Shown here piece after piece: positions 1 to 12,950 of a stretch of 12,950 nucleotides of DNA (within the stretch, counting starts at the first letter, position 1; each line of letters begins with the position of its first letter). The stretch lies in NCBI RefSeq assembly GCF_025370715.1, contig NZ_JAMXEY010000002.1; one strand, written 5' to 3'. The DNA is from Laspinema olomoucense D3d. Lineage in GTDB: Bacteria; Cyanobacteriota; Cyanobacteriia; Cyanobacteriales; Laspinemataceae. The notes under the pieces were generated by a model. That model searched no databases. It was not told where the DNA came from and was given only the letters and a program-made list of their open reading frames with translations. A program made the position numbers and the translations under genes.

Positions 1-1590
1 AACCACCCGTTGCCCATCGCCGCTGATGGCTACGGCACGTACCCAGTCACTATGCCCGGTGAGAGTGCGTTCCTCCTCCCCTGTGGCCAGATTCCACACT
101 TTCAGGGTCTTATCGTCTGAACCGGAAACCACCCGTTGCCCATCGCCGCTGATGGCTACGGCACGTACCCAGTCACTATGCCCGGTGAGAGTGCGTTCCT
201 CCTTCCCGGTGGCCAGATTCCACACTTTCAGGGTCTTATCCCCTGAACCGGAAACCACCCGTTGCCCATCGCCGCTGATGGCTACGGCACGTACCCAGCT
301 ACTATGCCCGGTGAGAGTGCGTTCCTCCTTCCCGGTGGCCAGATTCCACACTTTCAGGGTCTTATCCCCTGAACCGGAAACCACCCGTTGCCCATCGCCG
401 CTGATGGCTACGGCACGTACCCAGCTACTATGCCCGGTGAGAGGGCGTTCCTCCTTCCCGGTGGCCAGATTCCATACTTTCAGGGTGTTATCGTCTGAAC
501 CGGAAACCACCCGTTGCCCATCGCGGCTAATGGCTACGGCACGTACCCAGCTACTATGCCCGGGGAGAGTGCGTTCCTCCTCCCCGGTGGCCAGATTCCA
601 CACTTTCAGGGTGTTATCGTCTGAACCGGAAACCACCTGTTGCCCATCGCGGCTGATGGCTACGGCAGTTACCGAGTTACTATGCCCGGTGAGAGTGCGT
701 TCCTCCTCCCCGGTGGCCAGATTCCATACTTTCAGGGTGTTATCGTCTGAACCGGAAACCACCCGTTGCCCATCGCGGCTGATGGCCACGGCATTTACCG
801 TGCCACTATGCCCGGTGAGAGCGCGTTCCTCCTCCCCGGTGGCCAGATTCCAAACCTTTAGGGTGTTATCATAAGAACCGGAAACCACCCGTTGCCCATC
901 GCGGCTGATGGCCACGGCACGTACCATATCACTATGCCCGGTGAGAGTGCGTTCCTCCTCCCCGGTGGACAGATTCCAAACCTTTAGGGTGTTATCATAA
1001 GAACCGGAAACCGCCCGTTGCCCATCGCGGCTGATGGCCACGGCACTTACCCAGTCACTATGCCCGGTGAGGGTGCGTTCCTCCTCCCCCGTGGCCAGAT
1101 TCCACACTTTCAGGGTGTTATCCTCTGAACCAGAAACCACCCGTTGCCCATCGGGGCTGATGGCCACGGCAGTTACCGAGCTACTATGCCCGGTGAGAGT
1201 GCGTTCCTCCTCCCCCGTGGCCAGATTCCACACTTTCAGGGTGTTATCCTCTGAACCAGAAACCACCCGTTGCCCATCGGGGCTGATGGCCACGGCAGTT
1301 ACCGAGCTACTATGCCCGGTGAGAGTGCGTTCCTCCTCCCCGGTGGCCAGATTCCACACTTTCAGGGTGTTATCCTCTGAACCAGAAACCACCCGTTGCC
1401 CATCGGGGCTGATGGCCACGGCAGTTACCGAGTTACCATGCCCGGTGAGGGTGCGTTCCTCCTCCCCTGTCGCCAAATTCCACACCTTCAGGGTTTTATC
1501 CAATGAACCGGAAACCACCCGTTGCCCATCCCGGCTGATGGCGACGGCATTTACCGAGTTACCATGCCCGGTGAGAGTGCGGATTAAGGG
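1..1590 (-). repeat. Tandem array of 13 near-identical 126-bp units, each encoding one 42-aa WD40 blade; the array continues beyond the window
   Basis: The motif aaccacccgttgcccatcgc recurs at 1, 127, 253, 379, 505, 631, 757, 883, 1009, 1135, 1261, 1387 and 1513, an exact 126-bp period. Units are roughly 90% or more identical at the DNA level by eye. Differences concentrate in a few codons. Confidence 0.9.
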
Positions 1591-3981
1591 ACCGCCGGGG
1601 GCTGTCAAGTTAGGGAAGAGGGGACGAATCCAGGGTTTTCTTTGACATTGTTGCGCCTGGGTCAGCAGTTGGATGATGGCGGGGAACGTCTCCCTTTGGG
1701 GAGTCTCCTCCGCATACTTGGGTAAATGCTGACCAATGCCCGGAATCCGCTCCCAGAAATAGCGATAGGGAGGTTTAGGGGGGGTCATCTCCCCAAAAGA
1801 CAACAACCGCCCCCAGAGTTGCCCCGCCAGTTGGCTGGTATCCTGCTGCACCACATGGGCGGACAAGCGCACCGCCTCCCCCACTAGCTCCAGGGTCCGA
1901 CTTGCCACCGCCTCTGGAACTGCCTCAAAATCCGCCAACACCGCCCCCACCCCCAGGCGCTCTATCTTCCCCTGCAACCAGGGAAAATCCAGTAACAGGG
2001 GTGGGATGTGGTGTGGGCAAACTTGGAGATGGTGACGAATGGCGTAGCGAGCAAAATACTCATCCGCCGTCGCCTCGTGATAGCCTTCGGGATAGCGTTG
2101 ACCATAAGCGGCGAAAAACTGCTCCTGACGCGCCGTCAAATCCCCCGCCTGTTGGCGCACATAATCCACCTGCAAATCGTGCAGACTCAGCCGATCTAAC
2201 TCATCCCGCAACAGCAACGACTTCGCCACCAAATCATTCACCACATCGGACACCGCCGAGGCATCCAGCCCGATCGCCCCCCAGAAAATTTCCAGCACCC
2301 CCTCGGGAATCGGCCTATCCTCCGGGAAAATCGCCAAATCCAGATACCGAGTCGCCATATCTGACGGCAACGCATCCACACTCACTTGCAGCACTTTCAG
2401 TAAATTGGGATGGGGATAATTCGGGAACTCGTAGGCAATCCGAGCTAAATCTGGCGATCGCAATTTTTCCAGCACATTCCGCCAACGGTTTGCCCCGTTC
2501 CCACGGACCATTGCCCCGGCGATCGCCACTGCCAAAGGCAAATAGCCACATTCCCGCACCACCTCCACCGCCTCCGGTGGCAATCCTTCCCGGTGTTCCC
2601 CCGCCCACTGCGCCACCAACCCTAACCCCTGCTCCTCGGACAACACCCCCACCTCATGACCTTGGGCCGCCAACCCCGTCACTAACCTCCCATCCCGGGT
2701 CGTCACCAACAATTGACACCGTGGCCCCAACCCGTCAAACGCCGCCGCGTGGGACATCTGCCAAACATCATCCAACACCAACAAACAAGCGCGCCCCTCC
2801 AACTGTTGCGCCAGTGCCGCTTTCCCCTGGGGCACATCCTCAAAATAGATGCGCTCCCCGGTGAAATAGGCCACACAGTCCACCAATCGCGCTTTCACGT
2901 TCGGTTTTTGCCCCAAGGTCACCCACAGCACCCCATCGGGAAACCGTTCTCCCACCGCTTCATCCCGCGCCACCGCCGCCGCCAGCACCGACTTCCCAAT
3001 GCCCCCCATCCCCTGCACGCCCACCCGCTGCGCCACCCCCGTCATCACCAAAGTTTGGGACTCGGTTCCCAGCAGCTTGGTTTTAATCGCCTCAACTTCT
3101 TCTGAGCGGGGCAAAAACTTCAGAGGCAAGGACGGCACATTAAACAACTGGGAACGGAGTGCAGCGGTTGCCCCTTCCCCCCCTGCCAGTCGGTCCATCT
3201 TGCCTTCCATGCGCTCTCCCTGTCGCATCAGACGCAAGAAATTCTCGTCTAAGCTACTCAGCACCCGCTCCACATCTTCCCGCTGCGCCAACTTCGGCAA
3301 ATACTGCTGAATTTCCTGAAGCTGCGCCAAAGTTGCCCCATGCAAATCCAACACCATCCCCCCAAACGCTTTCGGGTCATCCTTCAACACCTGCCGCAAA
3401 TACTGGCCAAAATTCGCCGCCAACTCCCCCGCCAACGCCGCCACCACATCCTGATACTCGGCAGCTTCCGCAGGCAAAATCCCCCGCCCATAGCCCCAAT
3501 CCACCAAATCCTCACTTAACTCCTGCCACTCGTCCGCCGTCAAAACCGGGTAGTTGCTGAACCCTCCGGGTGCTTGGCTAAACAGGTGATAAAGCTGCTC
3601 CTCCTGCAAGGTTTCAAACACATTAATGCCCTGCACCCGCTCCAACCAATAGACTTCCACCCCATCCGCCAACCCCTGCAATCCAGCGCGCAAATCCAGG
3701 AACTGGGGGATGATGCGCTCCTCTAAGGTTTTCCCCACCGTCCGTCCCGCCGCCTTCGCTAAATCCTCATTCCGCAACACCTCCCCATGATTGCGAAACC
3801 GATCGAGCAACGCCTCGATCTCATTTGCCCCCAAGCTGCTGATAATCCCACTCGTCACAGTCCATACCGCTTCTGTCCCAGGACTCCCCGCCTTTGCTAG
3901 AGTCCACACAGCCCCCAACCCCAGTAGCGCCGTTTTACCCAATAGGCTTCGATTCACCTTGAGCCACCGATTCGCATCCAT
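1..3981 (-). CDS. STAND/NLR-like NTPase: unknown N-terminal domain, then NB-ARC (AP-ATPase), then a WD40 repeat array. The C-terminus is partial: the gene continues beyond the window start, in-window part 1,327 codons
   Basis: Minus-strand frame is open from the ATG at 3979-3981 (GGAGG 10 nt upstream) to position 1 with no stop. Walker A QGMGGIGKS is encoded around 2990-3013, Walker B ACLLVLDDVW at 2761-2790, and an LLVTTRD sensor motif follows. The linker PWIRPLFPNLTAPGGPLIRTLTGH then leads into 13 WD40 units of consensus SGSxDxTLKVWNLATGEEERTLTGHSxxVxAVAISxDGQRVV. The plus-strand ORFs in the track (26..874, 1034..1645, 1902..2864) are antisense artefacts of this gene. Confidence 0.85.
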   Translation of the reverse strand, partial: MDANRWLKVNRSLLGKTALLGLGAVWTLAKAGSPGTEAVWTVTSGIISSLGANEIEALLDRFRNHGEVLRNEDLAKAAGRTVGKTLEERIIPQFLDLRAGLQGLADGVEVYWLERVQGINVFETLQEEQLYHLFSQAPGGFSNYPVLTADEWQELSEDLVDWGYGRGILPAEAAEYQDVVAALAGELAANFGQYLRQVLKDDPKAFGGMVLDLHGATLAQLQEIQQYLPKLAQREDVERVLSSLDENFLRLMRQGERMEGKMDRLAGGEGATAALRSQLFNVPSLPLKFLPRSEEVEAIKTKLLGTESQTLVMTGVAQRVGVQGMGGIGKSVLAAAVARDEAVGERFPDGVLWVTLGQKPNVKARLVDCVAYFTGERIYFEDVPQGKAALAQQLEGRACLLVLDDVWQMSHAAAFDGLGPRCQLLVTTRDGRLVTGLAAQGHEVGVLSEEQGLGLVAQWAGEHREGLPPEAVEVVRECGYLPLAVAIAGAMVRGNGANRWRNVLEKLRSPDLARIAYEFPNYPHPNLLKVLQVSVDALPSDMATRYLDLAIFPEDRPIPEGVLEIFWGAIGLDASAVSDVVNDLVAKSLLLRDELDRLSLHDLQVDYVRQQAGDLTARQEQFFAAYGQRYPEGYHEATADEYFARYAIRHHLQVCPHHIPPLLLDFPWLQGKIERLGVGAVLADFEAVPEAVASRTLELVGEAVRLSAHVVQQDTSQLAGQLWGRLLSFGEMTPPKPPYRYFWERIPGIGQHLPKYAEETPQRETFPAIIQLLTQAQQCQRKPWIRPLFPNLTAPGGPLIRTLTGHGNSVNAVAISRDGQRVVSGSLDKTLKVWNLATGEEERTLTGHGNSVTAVAISPDGQRVVSGSEDNTLKVWNLATGEEERTLTGHSSSVTAVAISPDGQRVVSGSEDNTLKVWNLATGEEERTLTGHSSSVTAVAISPDGQRVVSGSEDNTLKVWNLATGEEERTLTGHSDWVSAVAISRDGQRAVSGSYDNTLKVWNLSTGEEERTLTGHSDMVRAVAISRDGQRVVSGSYDNTLKVWNLATGEEERALTGHSGTVNAVAISRDGQRVVSGSDDNTLKVWNLATGEEERTLTGHSNSVTAVAISRDGQQVVSGSDDNTLKVWNLATGEEERTLPGHSSWVRAVAISRDGQRVVSGSDDNTLKVWNLATGKEERPLTGHSSWVRAVAISGDGQRVVSGSGDKTLKVWNLATGKEERTLTGHSSWVRAVAISGDGQRVVSGSGDKTLKVWNLATGKEERTLTGHSDWVRAVAISGDGQRVVSGSDDKTLKVWNLATGEEERTLTGHSDWVRAVAISGDGQRVV

Positions 3982-4151
3982 CCTCTGTACCTCCACCACT
4001 GCACCTATTTTACTGAAGGTTCATCACCTTGGACACGATTTGTCAGCAAAAAGTGGGTACGAACAGCGCTATCCGGATTCATGAATTTCACCGCAACGGA
4101 CGGGAGCCATTAGAATAGAAACGTGAATCTGACTTAACCGGAGTGTGTGAC
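3982..4151. promoter_or_regulatory. Divergent intergenic region shared by the STAND gene (minus) and the small-protein/protease cassette (plus); presumed divergent promoters
   Basis: This 170-bp non-coding gap lies between two start codons facing away from each other. GGAGG is present 10 nt upstream of the minus-strand ATG and GGAG 8 nt upstream of the plus-strand ATG at 4152. No -35/-10 pair could be pinned down confidently. Confidence 0.35.
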
Positions 4152-4367
4152 ATGGTGCCATCGGAATTAATCTCAACCTTGAGAGCGCTGAGTCGTTCAG
4201 ATCAGTTCTATATCATGCAGATTCTGCTCTCAGAATTAGCCCAGCAGGAACCTACTCTGATTCAGTCTGAGCAATCTTATCCAGTGTGGTCGCCTTATGG
4301 TGCGGATGAGGCAGCAGATACAATGTTAAAAGTGCTACAGGAGTCTAAATCTCAAGATGATGGGTAA
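4152..4367 (+). CDS. Small acidic hypothetical protein, 71 aa, D/E-rich; partner of the downstream protease
   Basis: ATG at 4152 with GGAG at 4140-4143 (8-nt spacer). The ORF track starts at the GTG at 4143, and ATG 4152 is the more likely start. The frame stays open through an AT-richer stretch. Its stop TAA at 4365-4367 overlaps the next ORF's ATGATG start at 4357. No recognisable family. Confidence 0.5.
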   Translation: MVPSELISTLRALSRSDQFYIMQILLSELAQQEPTLIQSEQSYPVWSPYGADEAADTMLKVLQESKSQDDG

Positions 4368-4788
4368 TCCTGAACGATATCCATTTTTATCGGGTAATCC
4401 GGCATTAGGTGAAGCTAGTTTTTGTCCGTATCTGCCTTTGACCTTGTTTTACCAGGAGAGTTCACTCAAAACCTCCGGGCTGTTAGATACTGGGGCAAGT
4501 GTAAATGTGCTGCCATATTTGACAGGCATTGAGCTGGGATACGAATGGGAGAGACAAACAACTGCTCTGAGCCTGACTGGTAATTTAGCTCAGTATGAGG
4601 CGCGTGTTGTACTTGCTCAAGGGATCATTGGTCAGTTTGAGCCTGTGCAACTGGTATTTGCCTGGACACAAGCTACAAACGTACCGCTCATTCTGGGGCA
4701 GGTAAACTTTTTTATGGAGTTCGATGTCTGTTTCTATCGTTCCCAGTTAGAGTTTGCAGTCAGCCCTAAAACTCCTTCCTCCGAGTAG
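4357..4788 (+). CDS. Retropepsin-like (clan AA) single-domain aspartyl protease, 143 aa
   Basis: Catalytic motif LLDTGASVNVLP (Asp at aa 44, nt 4486-4488) follows a hydrophobic hairpin region. The C-terminal hh-G-x-hh motif LILGQVNFF matches the ILGRD/IIGRN dimer-interface motif of retropepsins and Ddi1. Its size fits a homodimerising half-pepsin. The start overlaps the upstream stop by 11 nt (ATGATGGGTAA), indicating translational coupling. Confidence 0.6.
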   Translation: MMGNPERYPFLSGNPALGEASFCPYLPLTLFYQESSLKTSGLLDTGASVNVLPYLTGIELGYEWERQTTALSLTGNLAQYEARVVLAQGIIGQFEPVQLVFAWTQATNVPLILGQVNFFMEFDVCFYRSQLEFAVSPKTPSSE

Positions 4789-9275: not shown

Positions 9276-10844
9276 CTACTCCCGTTCCAAAATTCTGACC
9301 ATTCCTTTGGCACTGCCACTGATGAGAAGTTGTCCATTTGGACTGTAAACTAAGGACATCACGGCCCCACTTTCTTCCGTTAACGTGCAGAGTAATTTAC
9401 CTGTGGGTAAATGCCAGATTTTGACCGTCCCATCGGCGCTGCCTGTGGCAAAGCTGTTCCCATCTGGGGCGAGGGCGACTGCGGTTACGGGTCCTAAATG
9501 GGCACTCAGACTCCACAGCAGTTCACCCGTTTCCAAATTCCAGAGTTGAATACTGCCGTCGCCACTGCCGCCGATGAGGAGTTGTTGGGGAGAGATGACG
9601 ATCGCTTCTACTGCCTCTAAACTGCCATTGAGGACCGAAATCGGCTGTTTGGTTTGGAACTGCCACAGGGTAATCGTACCGTCCCCACCGCCTCGGGCGA
9701 GAATTTGACCATCGGGGGAAATAGCGAGGGAAAAGATGGGTCCGGTATAGTCCGTGAGGGTATCAATTAATTCAGCAGTGGACAAATCCCACAATTTAAT
9801 CGTCTCGTCAAAACTGCCACTGACGAGGGTTTTGCCATCAGGGGCGATCGCCAAGGCGCGGACGGAACCCCCATGTCCCGTGAGGGTTTCTTTGGGAATT
9901 CCTGTGGGGAGTTCCCAGAGTTTGATGGTTTTATCCCAACTGGCAGAGGCGAGGGTTTTGCCATCGGGGGCGATCGCAATGGCAAATACCCCCCGTTTGT
10001 GTTCGGCAAGGACTTGCAACAGTTCGCCCGTAGTCAGGTTCCACAGTTTAATACTGGTATCAAAACTGCCCGTTGCTAGAATTTGTCCATCAGGGGTAAT
10101 CCCCAGCGATCGCACCCAGTCCGCATGGGCGGGCAAACTGTGGCGACAGCTCCAATTCTGGGCCGTGGGTTCTGAGGGGGCCGCAAATGACGGCAGGACG
10201 ACTTTCGACGCGGGCGGTTTGGATTTGGCGGGTTGAGAAGGGGTTGCGGATGTGGGGGGTTCCGGCGTTGCCAGTTCCGGTTGAGGGCGAGGAGAGGGCG
10301 ACGGGACCACGATTTGCGAGGTTAATTGGGAAATTGCCTCCTCCACTCGTTCTAAGCGGTAGGCAAAGGATGAACGATTCAGATAGGCGATCGCATTGCC
10401 CAGACTTTCATCCAACAAGGCATATTGCTCTTTCAACCCCGCGATTTCCCCCTGAATCTGGGACAAATCCACCGATTCTAATTTCCCCAATCGGGTTTTA
10501 AGCAGAGCCAATTCATCCGGGGACCCCGTAGCCACAGGGGGGCGGCTGCCTTCCTCTACTTCCACTTGAGGGAGGGGAAGTTGCTTCTGGGCTTCCACCC
10601 GTTGGGTGAGCATTTCCAGTTCTTCCGCCAATTGGCGATGCTGTCGATTCGTTGTTCCACTGACTCGGCGAGTTTGGTGTTCCAGGCGATACCGGGCGAT
10701 CGCATTCAAAATCAGGGTACTGCAAATCAAAGGGGCGGCTACATAGATAGCCCCATTAAAAAAAACCGCCACTATCGACGCCACCAATGACGCGAACAAG
10801 GAAGCATATTCTGCGGTTTCTAGCCAATGACGGTGATTTGACAT
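9276..10844 (-). CDS. Membrane-anchored coiled-coil / Pro-rich-linker / 7x WD40 repeat protein
   Basis: Start taken at ATG 10842-10844 (MSNHRHW...) with GGAAGGA 6 nt upstream; the ORF track's 10862 is a GTG. The N-terminus has two hydrophobic helices (LFASLVASIVAVFF, VAAPLICSTLILNAI), then a heptad-like QLAEELEMLTQRVEAQ region, then a P/S/T-rich linker (PSPSPRPQPELATPEPPTSATPSQP). Seven diverged WD40 units follow, such as DTSIKLWNLTTGE, DKTIKLWELPTG, DETIKLWDL and DGTVKIWHLPTG. Confidence 0.8.
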   Translation of the reverse strand: MSNHRHWLETAEYASLFASLVASIVAVFFNGAIYVAAPLICSTLILNAIARYRLEHQTRRVSGTTNRQHRQLAEELEMLTQRVEAQKQLPLPQVEVEEGSRPPVATGSPDELALLKTRLGKLESVDLSQIQGEIAGLKEQYALLDESLGNAIAYLNRSSFAYRLERVEEAISQLTSQIVVPSPSPRPQPELATPEPPTSATPSQPAKSKPPASKVVLPSFAAPSEPTAQNWSCRHSLPAHADWVRSLGITPDGQILATGSFDTSIKLWNLTTGELLQVLAEHKRGVFAIAIAPDGKTLASASWDKTIKLWELPTGIPKETLTGHGGSVRALAIAPDGKTLVSGSFDETIKLWDLSTAELIDTLTDYTGPIFSLAISPDGQILARGGGDGTITLWQFQTKQPISVLNGSLEAVEAIVISPQQLLIGGSGDGSIQLWNLETGELLWSLSAHLGPVTAVALAPDGNSFATGSADGTVKIWHLPTGKLLCTLTEESGAVMSLVYSPNGQLLISGSAKGMVRILERE

Positions 10845-10900
10845 AGAGTCCTTCCCACCCACCGGAGCCTATATTACAAGTGCCATTTTATCAAAAATCC
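10845..10900 (-). promoter_or_regulatory. Putative promoter region of the membrane WD40 gene
   Basis: Read on the minus strand: TTGATA...(12 nt)...TTGTAATAT, with a TAATAT -10-like hexamer (plus-strand 10871-10876) about 27 nt upstream of the ATG. The spacing to the -35-like TTGATA is suboptimal, so this is tentative. Confidence 0.2.
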
Positions 10901-11174: not shown

Positions 11175-12575
11175 TTACAATCCTAGAAATAGCTTGGCAA
11201 TATTAAAGTAAATCAGAACACCCAAAACATCTACAGCCGTGGTAATAAATGGTGCTGACATCAGGGCGGGATCTAACTTAATGGCGCGGAATAAAAATGG
11301 CAGGGCTGAACCGGATACCGATGCCAAAATTGAAATCGCAATCAGAGAGATGCCGACACAGAAAGCCACCTGGAGATTGACTCGCAACAGGAAAAAAGCC
11401 CAGATGGTGGCAAGAGTTCCCAAAATTGTCCCTAGTAATGCACCGGCAATTCCTTCTCGCCAGATAACTTTGAGCGGTCCGAGTAAGCGAATTTCATCGG
11501 TATTCATCCCGCGAATCACCACAGTAGAAGACTGGGCACCGACATTCCCTCCCGTACCCGTCAGCAGGGGAATAAAGGCGGTGAGGACGACGACTTGCTG
11601 CAATAGCTCTTTTTGGGAATTAATAATTGATCCGGTTACGGTATTGGTGAGCAATAAGACGAACAGCCACACGACACGGCGTCGCGCCACTGTCCATAAA
11701 TTCATTTCAAAATAATTATCCCCATCGGTTTGGACCCCACCCAAGGCATAAATATCCTCGGTGGTTTCCTGTTCCATGATGTCGATCGCATCATCGATGG
11801 TGATGACCCCGACTAAGCGTTGCTCGCGATCGACCACGGGGATCGCTAGGAAATCATAGCGCTGAATCAGGCGCGAGACTTCCTCACCGTCGGTATCTGT
11901 ATGGACGAATACCACATCCCGAGTCATGATTTCACTAATTTTTTCCTCGGGGGAACTAATCACCAAGTCCCGCAGGGAAACGATTCCGGTTAACCGGCGT
12001 TCGCTATCCATGACATAGAGGTAATAAATAATTTCCGCCACTGGCGACAGGGTGCGAATCCGTTCCAGGGTTTGGCTGACGCTCATATTTTCCCGGACGG
12101 AAATATATTCCGGGGTCATGATTCTCCCGGCAGTTCCCGATTCATAGCCCATTAGCAGGGCGGTGGACTGCCATTCCGTGGGAGACAGTTGTGCCCGCAA
12201 TCGGCGCACGACTTTCGAGGGCAATTCATCCAGCAGTCGGGCGCGATCGTCCGGGGACATATTGCCAATGATATCTAGGACGTCCTGGCGCTTGAAGTCT
12301 TCTAAAAGCACCTGTTGGACGCTGGTATCGAGATGTTCATAAACTTCCGTTGCTTCCTGTTTGGATAGCAAGCGAAAGGCGATCGCCTGCATCGCTTCAG
12401 GCATTCCTTCGATCGCTTCGGCGATATCCACAGGTTGAACCGGGACTAAAATCGCTTTAGCCCCCTGGAGGTCCCCCTGTCTGAGCAGGGCTTCCAGTTG
12501 CGATCGCACTAAGTCAGGTATTTCTCTCCGCGACAGGGTCCCGAGGGGAGAGGATATCGGTTGAGGTTCAGTCAC
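11175..12575 (-). CDS. mgtE: Magnesium transporter MgtE (N-terminal MgtE-N domain, tandem CBS domains, C-terminal 5-TM MgtE pore domain)
   Basis: 466 aa. The GTG start at 12573-12575 is preceded by AGGGAG with a 6-nt spacer. The CBS-like regions are ...YISVRENMSVSQTLERIR... and ...RDVVFVHTDTDGEEVSRLIQRYDFLAIPVVD... The C-terminal TM block carries the conserved ...GNVGAQSSTVVIRG... and ...APFITTAVDVLGVLIYF... signatures of MgtE. Confidence 0.9.
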   Translation of the reverse strand: MTEPQPISSPLGTLSRREIPDLVRSQLEALLRQGDLQGAKAILVPVQPVDIAEAIEGMPEAMQAIAFRLLSKQEATEVYEHLDTSVQQVLLEDFKRQDVLDIIGNMSPDDRARLLDELPSKVVRRLRAQLSPTEWQSTALLMGYESGTAGRIMTPEYISVRENMSVSQTLERIRTLSPVAEIIYYLYVMDSERRLTGIVSLRDLVISSPEEKISEIMTRDVVFVHTDTDGEEVSRLIQRYDFLAIPVVDREQRLVGVITIDDAIDIMEQETTEDIYALGGVQTDGDNYFEMNLWTVARRRVVWLFVLLLTNTVTGSIINSQKELLQQVVVLTAFIPLLTGTGGNVGAQSSTVVIRGMNTDEIRLLGPLKVIWREGIAGALLGTILGTLATIWAFFLLRVNLQVAFCVGISLIAISILASVSGSALPFLFRAIKLDPALMSAPFITTAVDVLGVLIYFNIAKLFLGL

Positions 12576-12690: not shown

Positions 12691-12950
12691 TCACTCCGCA
12701 CCTCCCAAAAGCTGCTGTGCCACCGTTAAATAAATTAACACCCCCAGGACATCCACTGCTGTGGTAATAAAGGGCGCTGACATTAAGGTTGGCTCAAATC
12801 CTAGGCGATCAAATAAAAACGGGAGGGCTGACCCGGCGAAGGAGGCGAGGATAGTAATCGCCAGCAAACTCACTCCCACGGAAATAGCAACCAGGAGATT
12901 TCCCGCTAGGAAATAGGCCCAAATGGTGACAATAAGCGACAGCATGATTC
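12691..12950 (-). CDS. mgtE: Second MgtE-family magnesium transporter, C-terminal transmembrane part only (N-terminus beyond the window end)
   Basis: Translation ...ISVGVSLLAITILASFAGSALPFLFDRLGFEPTLMSAPFITTAVDVLGVLIYLTV... is clearly paralogous to the C-terminus of the complete mgtE at 11175..12575 (..ISLIAISILASVSGSALPFLFRAIKLDPALMSAPFITTAVDVLGVLIYFNI..). The frame stays open to the window edge. The Met at 12945 is probably internal. Confidence 0.75.
   Translation of the reverse strand, partial: IMLSLIVTIWAYFLAGNLLVAISVGVSLLAITILASFAGSALPFLFDRLGFEPTLMSAPFITTAVDVLGVLIYLTVAQQLLGGAE

Follow-up and report, generated by a model that had tools for sequence, protein, structure and literature searches.

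The large protein encoded at one end of a 12,950-nt stretch of the genome of the cyanobacterium Laspinema olomoucense D3d (contig NZ_JAMXEY010000002.1; the whole stretch is referred to here as the window) is a signal transduction ATPase with numerous domains (STAND) that resembles NOD-like receptors (NLRs). Its N-terminal region, termed the N-module, belongs to a genuine, uncatalogued family of modular domains for which no fold relative was detectable. The N-module lies in the position of an effector and may act as one, in particular on membranes. NLR-type STAND proteins are abundant in multicellular cyanobacteria, and many of their N-terminal output modules are unannotated. The family described here, which comprises at least 146 sequence clusters, is itself unnamed by any library and unexplained by solved folds.

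The gene starts at an ATG (3979-3981) on the minus strand, and its frame is uninterrupted for 1327 codons down to window position 1. The translation opens MDANRWLKVNRSLLGK, and M1 is nearly invariant in the family alignment. Since orthologs of the window protein are 1379-1390 aa long, about 55-60 C-terminal residues are expected beyond the window. The original prediction, made from the sequence, had placed an unrecognized ~310-aa domain ahead of the P-loop at 3051-3981, with no strand given. The peptide it quoted, MDANRWLKVNRSLLGKTALLGLGAVWTLAKAGSPGTEAVW...KLLG, is the minus-strand translation from 3981 down to 3052; the region was correctly located, and the lower bound was off by one base. 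Coding on the plus strand is ruled out, as the translation of that interval is riddled with stops. The proposed length also stands, because the Pfam NB-ARC match starts at residue 309, leaving ~308 residues ahead of the NTPase. The features concerned are as follows.

1..3981, minus strand: STAND/NLR-like gene of at least 1327 aa, with no stop between the ATG at 3981 and the edge of the window (translation)
3990..3994, minus strand: Shine-Dalgarno-like GGAGG, with an 8-nt spacer to the ATG (read from the sequence)
3052..3981, minus strand: N-terminal region, residues 1-310, made up of the conserved module (~1-266) and a linker (translation, library scans, AlphaFold2)
2374..3057, minus strand: NB-ARC NTPase, residues 309-536 (PF00931, E 5.9e-28)
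2989-3012, minus strand: Walker A, GMGGIGKS, residues 324-331 (motif reading)

None of the libraries searched recognizes the N-module. Scanned alone (310 residues), it gave no significant match in Pfam-A, where the best hit was DUF5955 (E 0.047, below its cutoff), nor in NCBIfam or PADLOC. When 22 diverse members of the family were scanned singly against the same three libraries at E ≤ 1, only unrelated matches were returned, each in one member. Weak matches to the RTX-toxin N-terminal (pore-forming) region, likewise in one member each, were set aside as compositional. The scans bear out the earlier statement that no TIR, caspase, nuclease, or patatin signature is present. Among families that have a model in these libraries, profile matches were absent for known enzymatic effectors (TIR, caspase/CHAT, HNH/restriction endonuclease, patatin, PNP, and SIR2), for CARD/Death, EAD1-11, TRADD-N, NNH, and Goodbye, and for HeLo, Helo_like_N, SesA, Rx_N, RPW8, and SLATT. 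A profile of the family searched against all PDB chain sequences found nothing significant (best E 0.37), and tblastn of the window N-module gave no match in phage and plasmid collections. In public databases, family members are annotated only as “NB-ARC domain-containing”, “WD40 repeat”, or “TPR repeat” proteins, and full-text searches of a limited literature collection found no paper that describes the domain.

The predicted structure of the N-module is all-alpha and consists of an N-terminal hairpin, a six-helix core, and a stalk. An AlphaFold2 (AF2) model of the 310 residues built with 105 sequences had a mean predicted local distance difference test (pLDDT) score of 73 and a predicted template modeling (pTM) score of 0.60, while a model built with five sequences gave a pLDDT of 50. 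Helices of the core were predicted at residues 71-93, 95-118, 127-135, 138-143, 149-165, and 173-201, and those of the stalk at 207-230 and 234-266. The stalk begins with KAFGGMVLDLHG (from residue 204), which is the window version of the family helix GGKAFAGLxLxLLG. The parts of the N-module are listed below.

3895..3948, minus strand: hydrophobic helix 1, residues 12-29, SLLGKTALLGLGAVWTLA (AF2 secondary structure, hydropathy)
3817..3870, minus strand: hydrophobic/amphipathic helix 2, residues 38-55, AVWTVTSGIISSLGANEI (AF2, hydropathy, conservation)
3802..3918, minus strand: hypervariable cassette, residues 22-60 (comparison with orthologous loci L003-L007)
3367..3786, minus strand: conserved all-alpha core, residues 66-205 (AF2 pLDDT ~88-97, conservation)
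3184..3363, minus strand: “stalk” of two long helices, residues 207-266 (AF2 pLDDT ~63-77)
3058..3183, minus strand: variable linker to the NTPase, residues 267-308 (low pLDDT)

Foldseek searches with the entire 310-residue model, its core untrimmed, found no significant neighbor in the PDB (best E 0.8, probability 0.08) or in BFVD (best E 0.64). Similarity to the four- to five-helix-bundle death folds of HeLo, MLKL, and coiled-coil (CC) NLR proteins was not seen. Taken together, structure prediction, Foldseek, and profile searches yielded no confident match to a known scaffold or other non-effector domain, which leaves standing the earlier suggestion of a new domain as far as an unrecognized, conserved domain in the effector position is concerned; that it is an effector can be put forward only as a possible function.

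The size of the family became apparent when 1.84e9 representative proteins were searched exhaustively with a HMMER profile. A word-indexed homolog search returned four close relatives when started from a single sequence and five from a diverse alignment, and the HMMER search returned 146 clusters at E ≤ 1e-3, of which 66 reached E ≤ 1e-10 and 13 reached E ≤ 1e-30. In almost all of the 146 clusters, the match starts no more than a few dozen residues from the N-terminus. The part conserved across the family corresponds to window residues ~1-250 and is followed by a spacer of variable length (median 86 aa, range 5-227) before the P-loop, the median position of which is residue 362. Near-invariant positions are L69, N71, D73, L74, G79, W112, L147, W152, L187, F191, L195, R196, K200, D202, and A205, and the consensus can be written as ...VAxGxxAN... 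LxNxDLxxAVGxAIA ... W ... LxExxL..F ... W ... FPxALREVLKxDFxxGGKAFAGLxLxLLG. Conserved polar residues are few (N71, D73, R196, K200, and D202) and occur at predicted helix ends, which suggests that their role is structural rather than catalytic.

The N-module is joined to a wide range of partners. Among 102 members of at least 450 aa, NB-ARC was found in 46, NACHT in 27, and nSTAND1 in 13, with the proviso that the NB-ARC and NACHT counts may overlap, as weak cross-matches pass E ≤ 1e-3. A further partner, nSTAND6, was present in six of the 51 members of a first batch; the 25 families listed for the second batch do not include it. The original prediction had proposed a survey of the sensors to which the domain is fused, and these turn out to be TPR repeats in ~35 of the 102 long members and WD40 or HEAT repeats in others. 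For example, P0010, a close relative of the window protein, is a module-nSTAND1-WD40 protein; P0017, P0023, P0053, and P0037 are module-NB-ARC-TPR proteins; P0043 combines the module with NACHT; P0071 has the order module-NACHT-HEAT-NCC-H-NCAB1; and P0014 is a module-NPHP3_N/AAA_16 protein. Two other members differ more markedly. In P0019 (L033 2113-8014), the module is fused to CHASE2 and the gene adjoins DUF928 and a TPR-CHAT gene, whereas in P0059 (L032 750-6747), the module is followed by TIR_2 and AAA_35, and an AAA_35-WD40 gene comes directly after. Since the N-module also precedes NACHT, nSTAND1, nSTAND6, AAA_35, and CHASE2, the possibility raised at the outset that it is only an NB-ARC-associated helical extension is excluded. 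Judged from these sequence associations, the N-module is mobile and not tied to one NTPase clade.

Among the 146 clusters, the module was never seen at the C-terminus of a protein or attached to a free-standing enzymatic effector. Free-standing, amyloid-tailed versions of the Bell/HeLo style were considered and rejected, as the short members resemble pieces of NTPase fusions that were cut off by contig ends. For instance, a 318-aa “protein” of Spirulina sp. CCNP1310 that might have passed for a free-standing member (L001 2102-5957) is a pseudogene: its open reading frame (ORF) runs into a stop, a fragment of NB-ARC (80 aa) begins 3 nt later, and an IS605 OrfB/TnpB gene lies ~1.3 kb further downstream.

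A scan of one genome per species recovered 29 loci, and all of the named organisms among them are filamentous cyanobacteria; the other three loci are from uncultured metagenome-assembled genomes (MAGs) labeled only “cyanobacterium” or “bacterium”. Among the loci are those of an uncultured Oscillatoriaceae MAG (90% identity) and Laspinema (82%), and further loci were found in Phormidium, Arthrospira/Limnospira, Oscillatoria, Geitlerinema, Spirulina, and Limnoraphis. More than one paralog is present in some genomes, as in a Geitlerinema contig with two loci ~5 kb apart (L012 and L022) and in MAG MFD01721, which has three. A distant member is carried by the mobilizable plasmid p3 of Nostoc sphaeroides (L035 5754-9215), where it is annotated as a “tetratricopeptide repeat protein” and is neighbored by a patatin-like phospholipase, two Ser/Thr kinases, and an integrase.

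Two side observations concern the family. The closest database relative, P0001 (91% identity, partial), is labeled as a “Vampirovibrionales bacterium” MAG; the contig is probably mis-binned, since all other relatives are from Oscillatoriales cyanobacteria. In addition, a motif of the form (I/V)xSGF(E/D)xVxxxLG(V/I/L), sometimes in two or three copies, lies just after the module in P0035, P0062, P0063, P0074, P0115, and P0123, and is not evident in the window protein.

The N-terminus of the module is its most distinctive part. A single, possibly membrane-interacting helix had been noted in the window protein, and the stretch in question is indeed present at residues 12-29. At the level of the family, however, there are two small-residue-rich hydrophobic helices rather than one, and the second terminates in the family G..AN motif. 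Within the first ~100 residues, members have an uncharged stretch with a median length of 32 residues and a maximum of 56, composed of 20% Ala, 16% Gly, 15% Leu, 10% Val, 9% Thr, and 8% Ser. Small-xxx-small-xxx-small motifs are enriched, with 3.9 observed per N-terminus and 2.4 in shuffled sequences. The maximum Kyte-Doolittle value over 19 residues has a family median of 1.78 at the N-terminus and exceeds 1.6 in 85% of members; over the remainder of the domain, the median is 1.0 and the maximum 1.61, with the 1.6 level attained in at most one member. On a Hessa-type scale, all 105 sequences (104 members and the window protein) have a best 19-residue sum above zero; the median is +2.5 kcal/mol for this best segment and +6.4 for the second helix. 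By these measures, the segments appear marginally hydrophobic and are probably not classical anchors. The pattern would suit hairpins that stay latent before insertion more than anchors that are always in the membrane. Genuine transmembrane (TM) helices do occur elsewhere in some members, as at residues 1378-1396 of P0023 and at residues 327-345 of P0019, where CHASE2 keeps its own N-terminal TM helix. Because that helix is retained, the hairpin of the module in the CHASE2 fusion must cross the membrane either zero times or twice, which is consistent with a hairpin.

Comparison with five close orthologs divides the module into two zones. The core (66-205), the stalk and linker, NB-ARC and the winged helix, and the helical domain are 84-96% identical to the five, while residues 1-65 are just 53-62% identical to four of them. 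The core has a dN/dS of ~0.4-0.6 and is under purifying selection. Divergence in the cassette at residues 22-60 falls into two allelic types, one found in the window, in L003, and partly in L005, and the other in L004, L006, and L007; the latter type is more hydrophobic and nearer the family consensus. Synonymous divergence in the cassette is also raised in three comparisons, which points to exchange of the cassette by recombination, to very fast evolution, or to both. A hypervariable hairpin on a constrained core would be expected of an exposed effector surface that is engaged in an arms race.

The remainder of the window protein is that of an intact STAND switch of the NB-ARC (AP-ATPase) clade, with all motifs preserved and a winged helix present.

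2761-2784, minus strand: Walker B, LLVLDDVW, residues 400-407 (motif reading)
2692-2712, minus strand: TTR motif, LLVTTRD, residues 424-430 (motif reading)
2527-2547, minus strand: GxP motif, GYLPLAV, residues 479-485 (motif reading)
2161..2361, minus strand: APAF-1-like winged helix, residues 541-607 (PF21296, E 2.2e-9)
2173-2187, minus strand: MHD-like LHD, residues 600-602 (motif reading)
1846..2112, minus strand: helical domain, weak APAF1_C match, residues 624-712 (PF17908, E 0.11)
1..1581, minus strand: WD40 sensor array made up of at least 12.5 copies of a 126-nt unit, 94% nucleotide matches (WD40 repeats by Pfam)

In homolog P0005, the same PF17908 domain is detected at E 4.8e-8. From ~residue 800 onwards, Pfam identifies at least 13 WD40 repeats, and near-identical repeats of this kind are typical where NLR sensors diversify rapidly (Dyrka et al. 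2020, bioRxiv 10.1101/2020.01.06.895854). With its WD40 repeat sensor and a variable N-terminal module at residues 1-308, the protein has the tripartite STAND architecture. It resembles other cyanobacterial APAF-1/NB-ARC-WD40 STAND proteins in having NB-ARC, a winged helix, an APAF1_C-like domain, and WD40 propellers, and it differs from APAF-1 in that the unclassified N-module takes the place of the N-terminal CARD adaptor. At orthologous loci, the gene appears to be monocistronic, with a convergent ORF downstream.

In plant CC-NLR resistosomes such as ZAR1, in MLKL, and in fungal HeLo/HET-S proteins, oligomerization exposes an N-terminal element that enters the membrane. By analogy with these, the N-module could be a latent membrane-inserting death or effector module that is released by STAND oligomerization, a reading that we favor with somewhat less than even confidence. 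In the resting monomer, the hairpin would be held on or in the helical bundle. Ligand binding by the WD40 propellers would then bring about nucleotide exchange at NB-ARC and oligomerization, and the oligomer would gather several N-modules, allowing their hairpins to insert together into the cytoplasmic or thylakoid membrane. The membrane would be permeabilized or depolarized, leading to the death of an infected or damaged cell by abortive infection or programmed cell death. Membrane insertion, toxicity, and this logic of activation are what we infer for the module. A non-enzymatic, membrane-acting output fits best because the module occupies the effector slot in several unrelated STAND clades and has no catalytic signature, because its polar residues lie at helix ends and its small-residue-rich hairpin is only marginally hydrophobic, and because it is the sole candidate output domain in the window protein. 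A bolder version of the same idea, that an undescribed fold was independently invented as a membrane-permeabilizing NLR executioner and that its hairpin cassette has been shaped by conflict, for instance with inhibitors encoded by phages or over self and non-self among filaments, is possible and is held more tentatively.

Several points weigh against membrane attack. The fold has no structural homolog that would link it to membrane damage, and AF2 places the hairpin without confidence (pLDDT <50 over residues 1-65, with helices at 3-30, 44-49, and 52-64). The hydropathy scales were applied crudely, the Hessa-type sums being position-independent, and by these measures the window allele is the least hydrophobic type (Kyte-Doolittle maximum 1.21, Hessa-type sum +5.8), with K16, K30, and E37 interrupting the hydrophobic segment. 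In P0059, a canonical TIR effector lies between the module and the ATPase, and the module need not be the killer there. Finally, the STAND gene of the window sits among housekeeping genes in no obvious defense island.

Since P0059 puts the module upstream of a TIR effector, a role as tether or relay is a serious alternative and the main rival, albeit one that we consider less likely. Here the hairpin would constitutively anchor the STAND protein at the cytoplasmic or thylakoid membrane, the bundle and stalk would position it or relay a signal, and the output would be supplied elsewhere, by another domain, a partner protein, or simple sequestration. The order N-module, TIR_2, AAA_35 in P0059 is readily understood in these terms, as are the fusion to a membrane receptor domain, CHASE2, in P0019, the lack of a catalytic signature, and the true TM helices that some members carry elsewhere, as in P0023. 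On the other hand, the positive Hessa-type sums in 105 of 105 sequences suggest a poor anchor, more so for the second helix, and the window allele carries charges within its hairpin. Nor should mere anchoring call for ~200 aa of conserved helical domain maintained by purifying selection, and the window protein contains no other candidate effector domain from which an output could come.

An adaptor role would have the N-module recruit, by homotypic contact, a separately encoded effector that bears the same domain, in the manner of effector-associated domains (EADs) or Death-like domains. This is improbable. The predicted partner is missing from the family, in that no module occurs on a free-standing enzymatic effector or at a C-terminus among the 146 clusters, and no Pfam EAD or Death-like model matches. 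EADs are ~60-100 aa, and the module, at ~250 aa and with a hydrophobic hairpin, is far larger. What it does have in common with EADs is that it is all-alpha and N-terminal to STAND NTPases (PMC7159879, PMC8195603), and the presence of several paralogs per genome, sometimes in tandem (Geitlerinema L012/L022; MAG MFD01721), would suit such a role.

Even less probable is that the module is a new all-alpha enzyme, for example a nuclease, an NADase, or a lipid-modifying effector, with an unrecognized fold. NLRs do carry enzymatic effectors at this position, and the core is highly conserved, with N71, D73, R196, K200, and D202 invariant. However, conserved His, Cys, Ser, and Glu residues are absent, the conserved polar residues at helix termini resemble capping or turn residues, and no fold or profile resembles any enzyme. 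As for a Sec/Tat-type signal peptide on an exported protein, the window protein has a superficial n-h-c layout (n-region R5/K8/R11, an h-region, and “AKA” at 29-31), but STAND NTPases are cytoplasmic ATP-dependent switches, as a ~1390-aa NB-ARC/WD40 protein would be by nature, a second hydrophobic helix follows the first, the “AKA” falls inside the hypervariable cassette, where orthologs L004, L006, and L007 do not have it, and the topology of the CHASE2 fusion requires a cytoplasmic module, all of which makes export extremely unlikely.

Known systems offer parallels to the membrane-inserting module in mechanism, and the relation to CC-NLR, HeLo, and MLKL proteins is drawn as one of analogy, not homology or membership; Bell, too, is cited as an analogy. 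Bell domains fold as five-helix bundles of ~100 aa, have a single hydrophobic helix and a C-terminal amyloid motif, and mostly occur free-standing; the seed is the N-terminal 102 aa of ONI86675.1, and there is often a C-terminal BASS amyloid motif whose pairing partner is an adjacent NLR (Dyrka et al. 2020, bioRxiv 10.1101/2020.01.06.895854). Like Bell and HeLo/HeLo-like/SesA domains, the N-module is all-alpha, has a hydrophobic N-terminal helix, and is found at the N-termini of NLRs, although Bell is so only occasionally. Bell occurs in filamentous cyanobacteria and actinobacteria, and is presumed to cause cell death by acting on membranes. In contrast, the N-module is ~250 aa long with two hydrophobic helices, and nearly all members long enough for their architecture to be read are fusions; no amyloid-motif partner was seen, and its size and lack of amyloid-tailed free-standing members argue against its being a Bell domain. 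With the CC/Rx_N/RPW8 domains of plant NLRs such as ZAR1, the N-module shares its position in a switch of the APAF-1/NB-ARC clade, but it has no sequence or fold similarity to CC domains or to the four-helix bundle of MLKL and is larger than these.

SLATT and other two-TM effectors of nucleotide-signaling defense systems (Burroughs et al. 2015, cited in PMC7159879) respond to nucleotide second messengers, are usually separate proteins, and are predicted to form pores. They too begin with two hydrophobic helices, and a helical region in the cytoplasm comes next; the helices of the N-module are less hydrophobic, and none of the 22 members scanned matched SLATT. EACC1, found mainly in actinobacteria, consists of a single small-residue-rich TM helix and alpha+beta extensions, and a caspase gene is its partner (PMC7159879, PMC8195603), whereas EACC2 is alpha+beta, is followed by a caspase, and has CHASE2 and STAND among its partners (PMC8195603). 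As with EACC1, EACC2, and the EADs, a constant N-terminal module is combined with variable partners, and CHASE2 and STAND are partners in common with EACC2; unlike EACC1 and EACC2, the N-module is all-alpha and is without a caspase, and at ~250 aa it is larger than the small EAD adaptors. No caspase/CHAT domain was found in any of 19 members scanned singly or among the families listed for the 102 long members. Identity with EACC2 was ruled out by the all-alpha AF2 model, as EACC2 is alpha+beta with a caspase following, and identity with EACC1 by the single TM helix, alpha+beta extensions, and caspase pairing of the latter. Surveys of bacterial NACHT proteins also list N-terminal helical (NNH) and TM categories (bioRxiv 10.1101/2022.07.19.500537).

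If the N-module is a membrane-acting death domain, bacteria would join plants, fungi, and animals as a group in which membrane attack by NLRs has arisen, and the domain would be a compact and testable toxic module. If it is a tether, a subset of bacterial NLRs would work at the membrane. Either outcome, effector or tether, would permit functional annotation of cyanobacterial genes now described as encoding “NB-ARC/WD40/TPR repeat proteins”.

Elsewhere in the window, the neighbors of the STAND gene are FAD-dependent amine-oxidase or isomerase-like, GST-like, histone-deacetylase-family, second WD40 protein, and MgtE genes. Base composition changes in a step near the start of the STAND gene. In its 5′ part (2500-4000), GC content is 56-63% and GC skew ranges from -0.36 to -0.41, the remainder of the gene has 55-60% GC with a weaker skew, and to the right of ~4000 the DNA is 41-56% GC with a skew near zero or positive. 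Two small overlapping ORFs, at 4143-4367 and 4357-4788 on the plus strand, are divergent from the STAND gene. The 143-aa ORF of the pair has a DTGAS motif and a sub-threshold match to Asp_protease_2 (E 2e-4), and is retropepsin-like. The gap that holds the small ORFs may be a local insertion, since the orthologous loci L003 and L007 hold different ORFs there.

A second, unrelated WD40 protein of 528 aa without an NTPase is encoded at 9276-10862 on the minus strand. It starts with a hydrophobic segment at the N-terminus and also contains a long region that is of low complexity or coiled and a WD40 propeller of the seven-blade type. Further along the same strand are a complete MgtE magnesium transporter gene (11175-12575) and the 3′ end of a second MgtE-like ORF (12691-12945), the two being tandem paralogs with similar C-terminal sequences.

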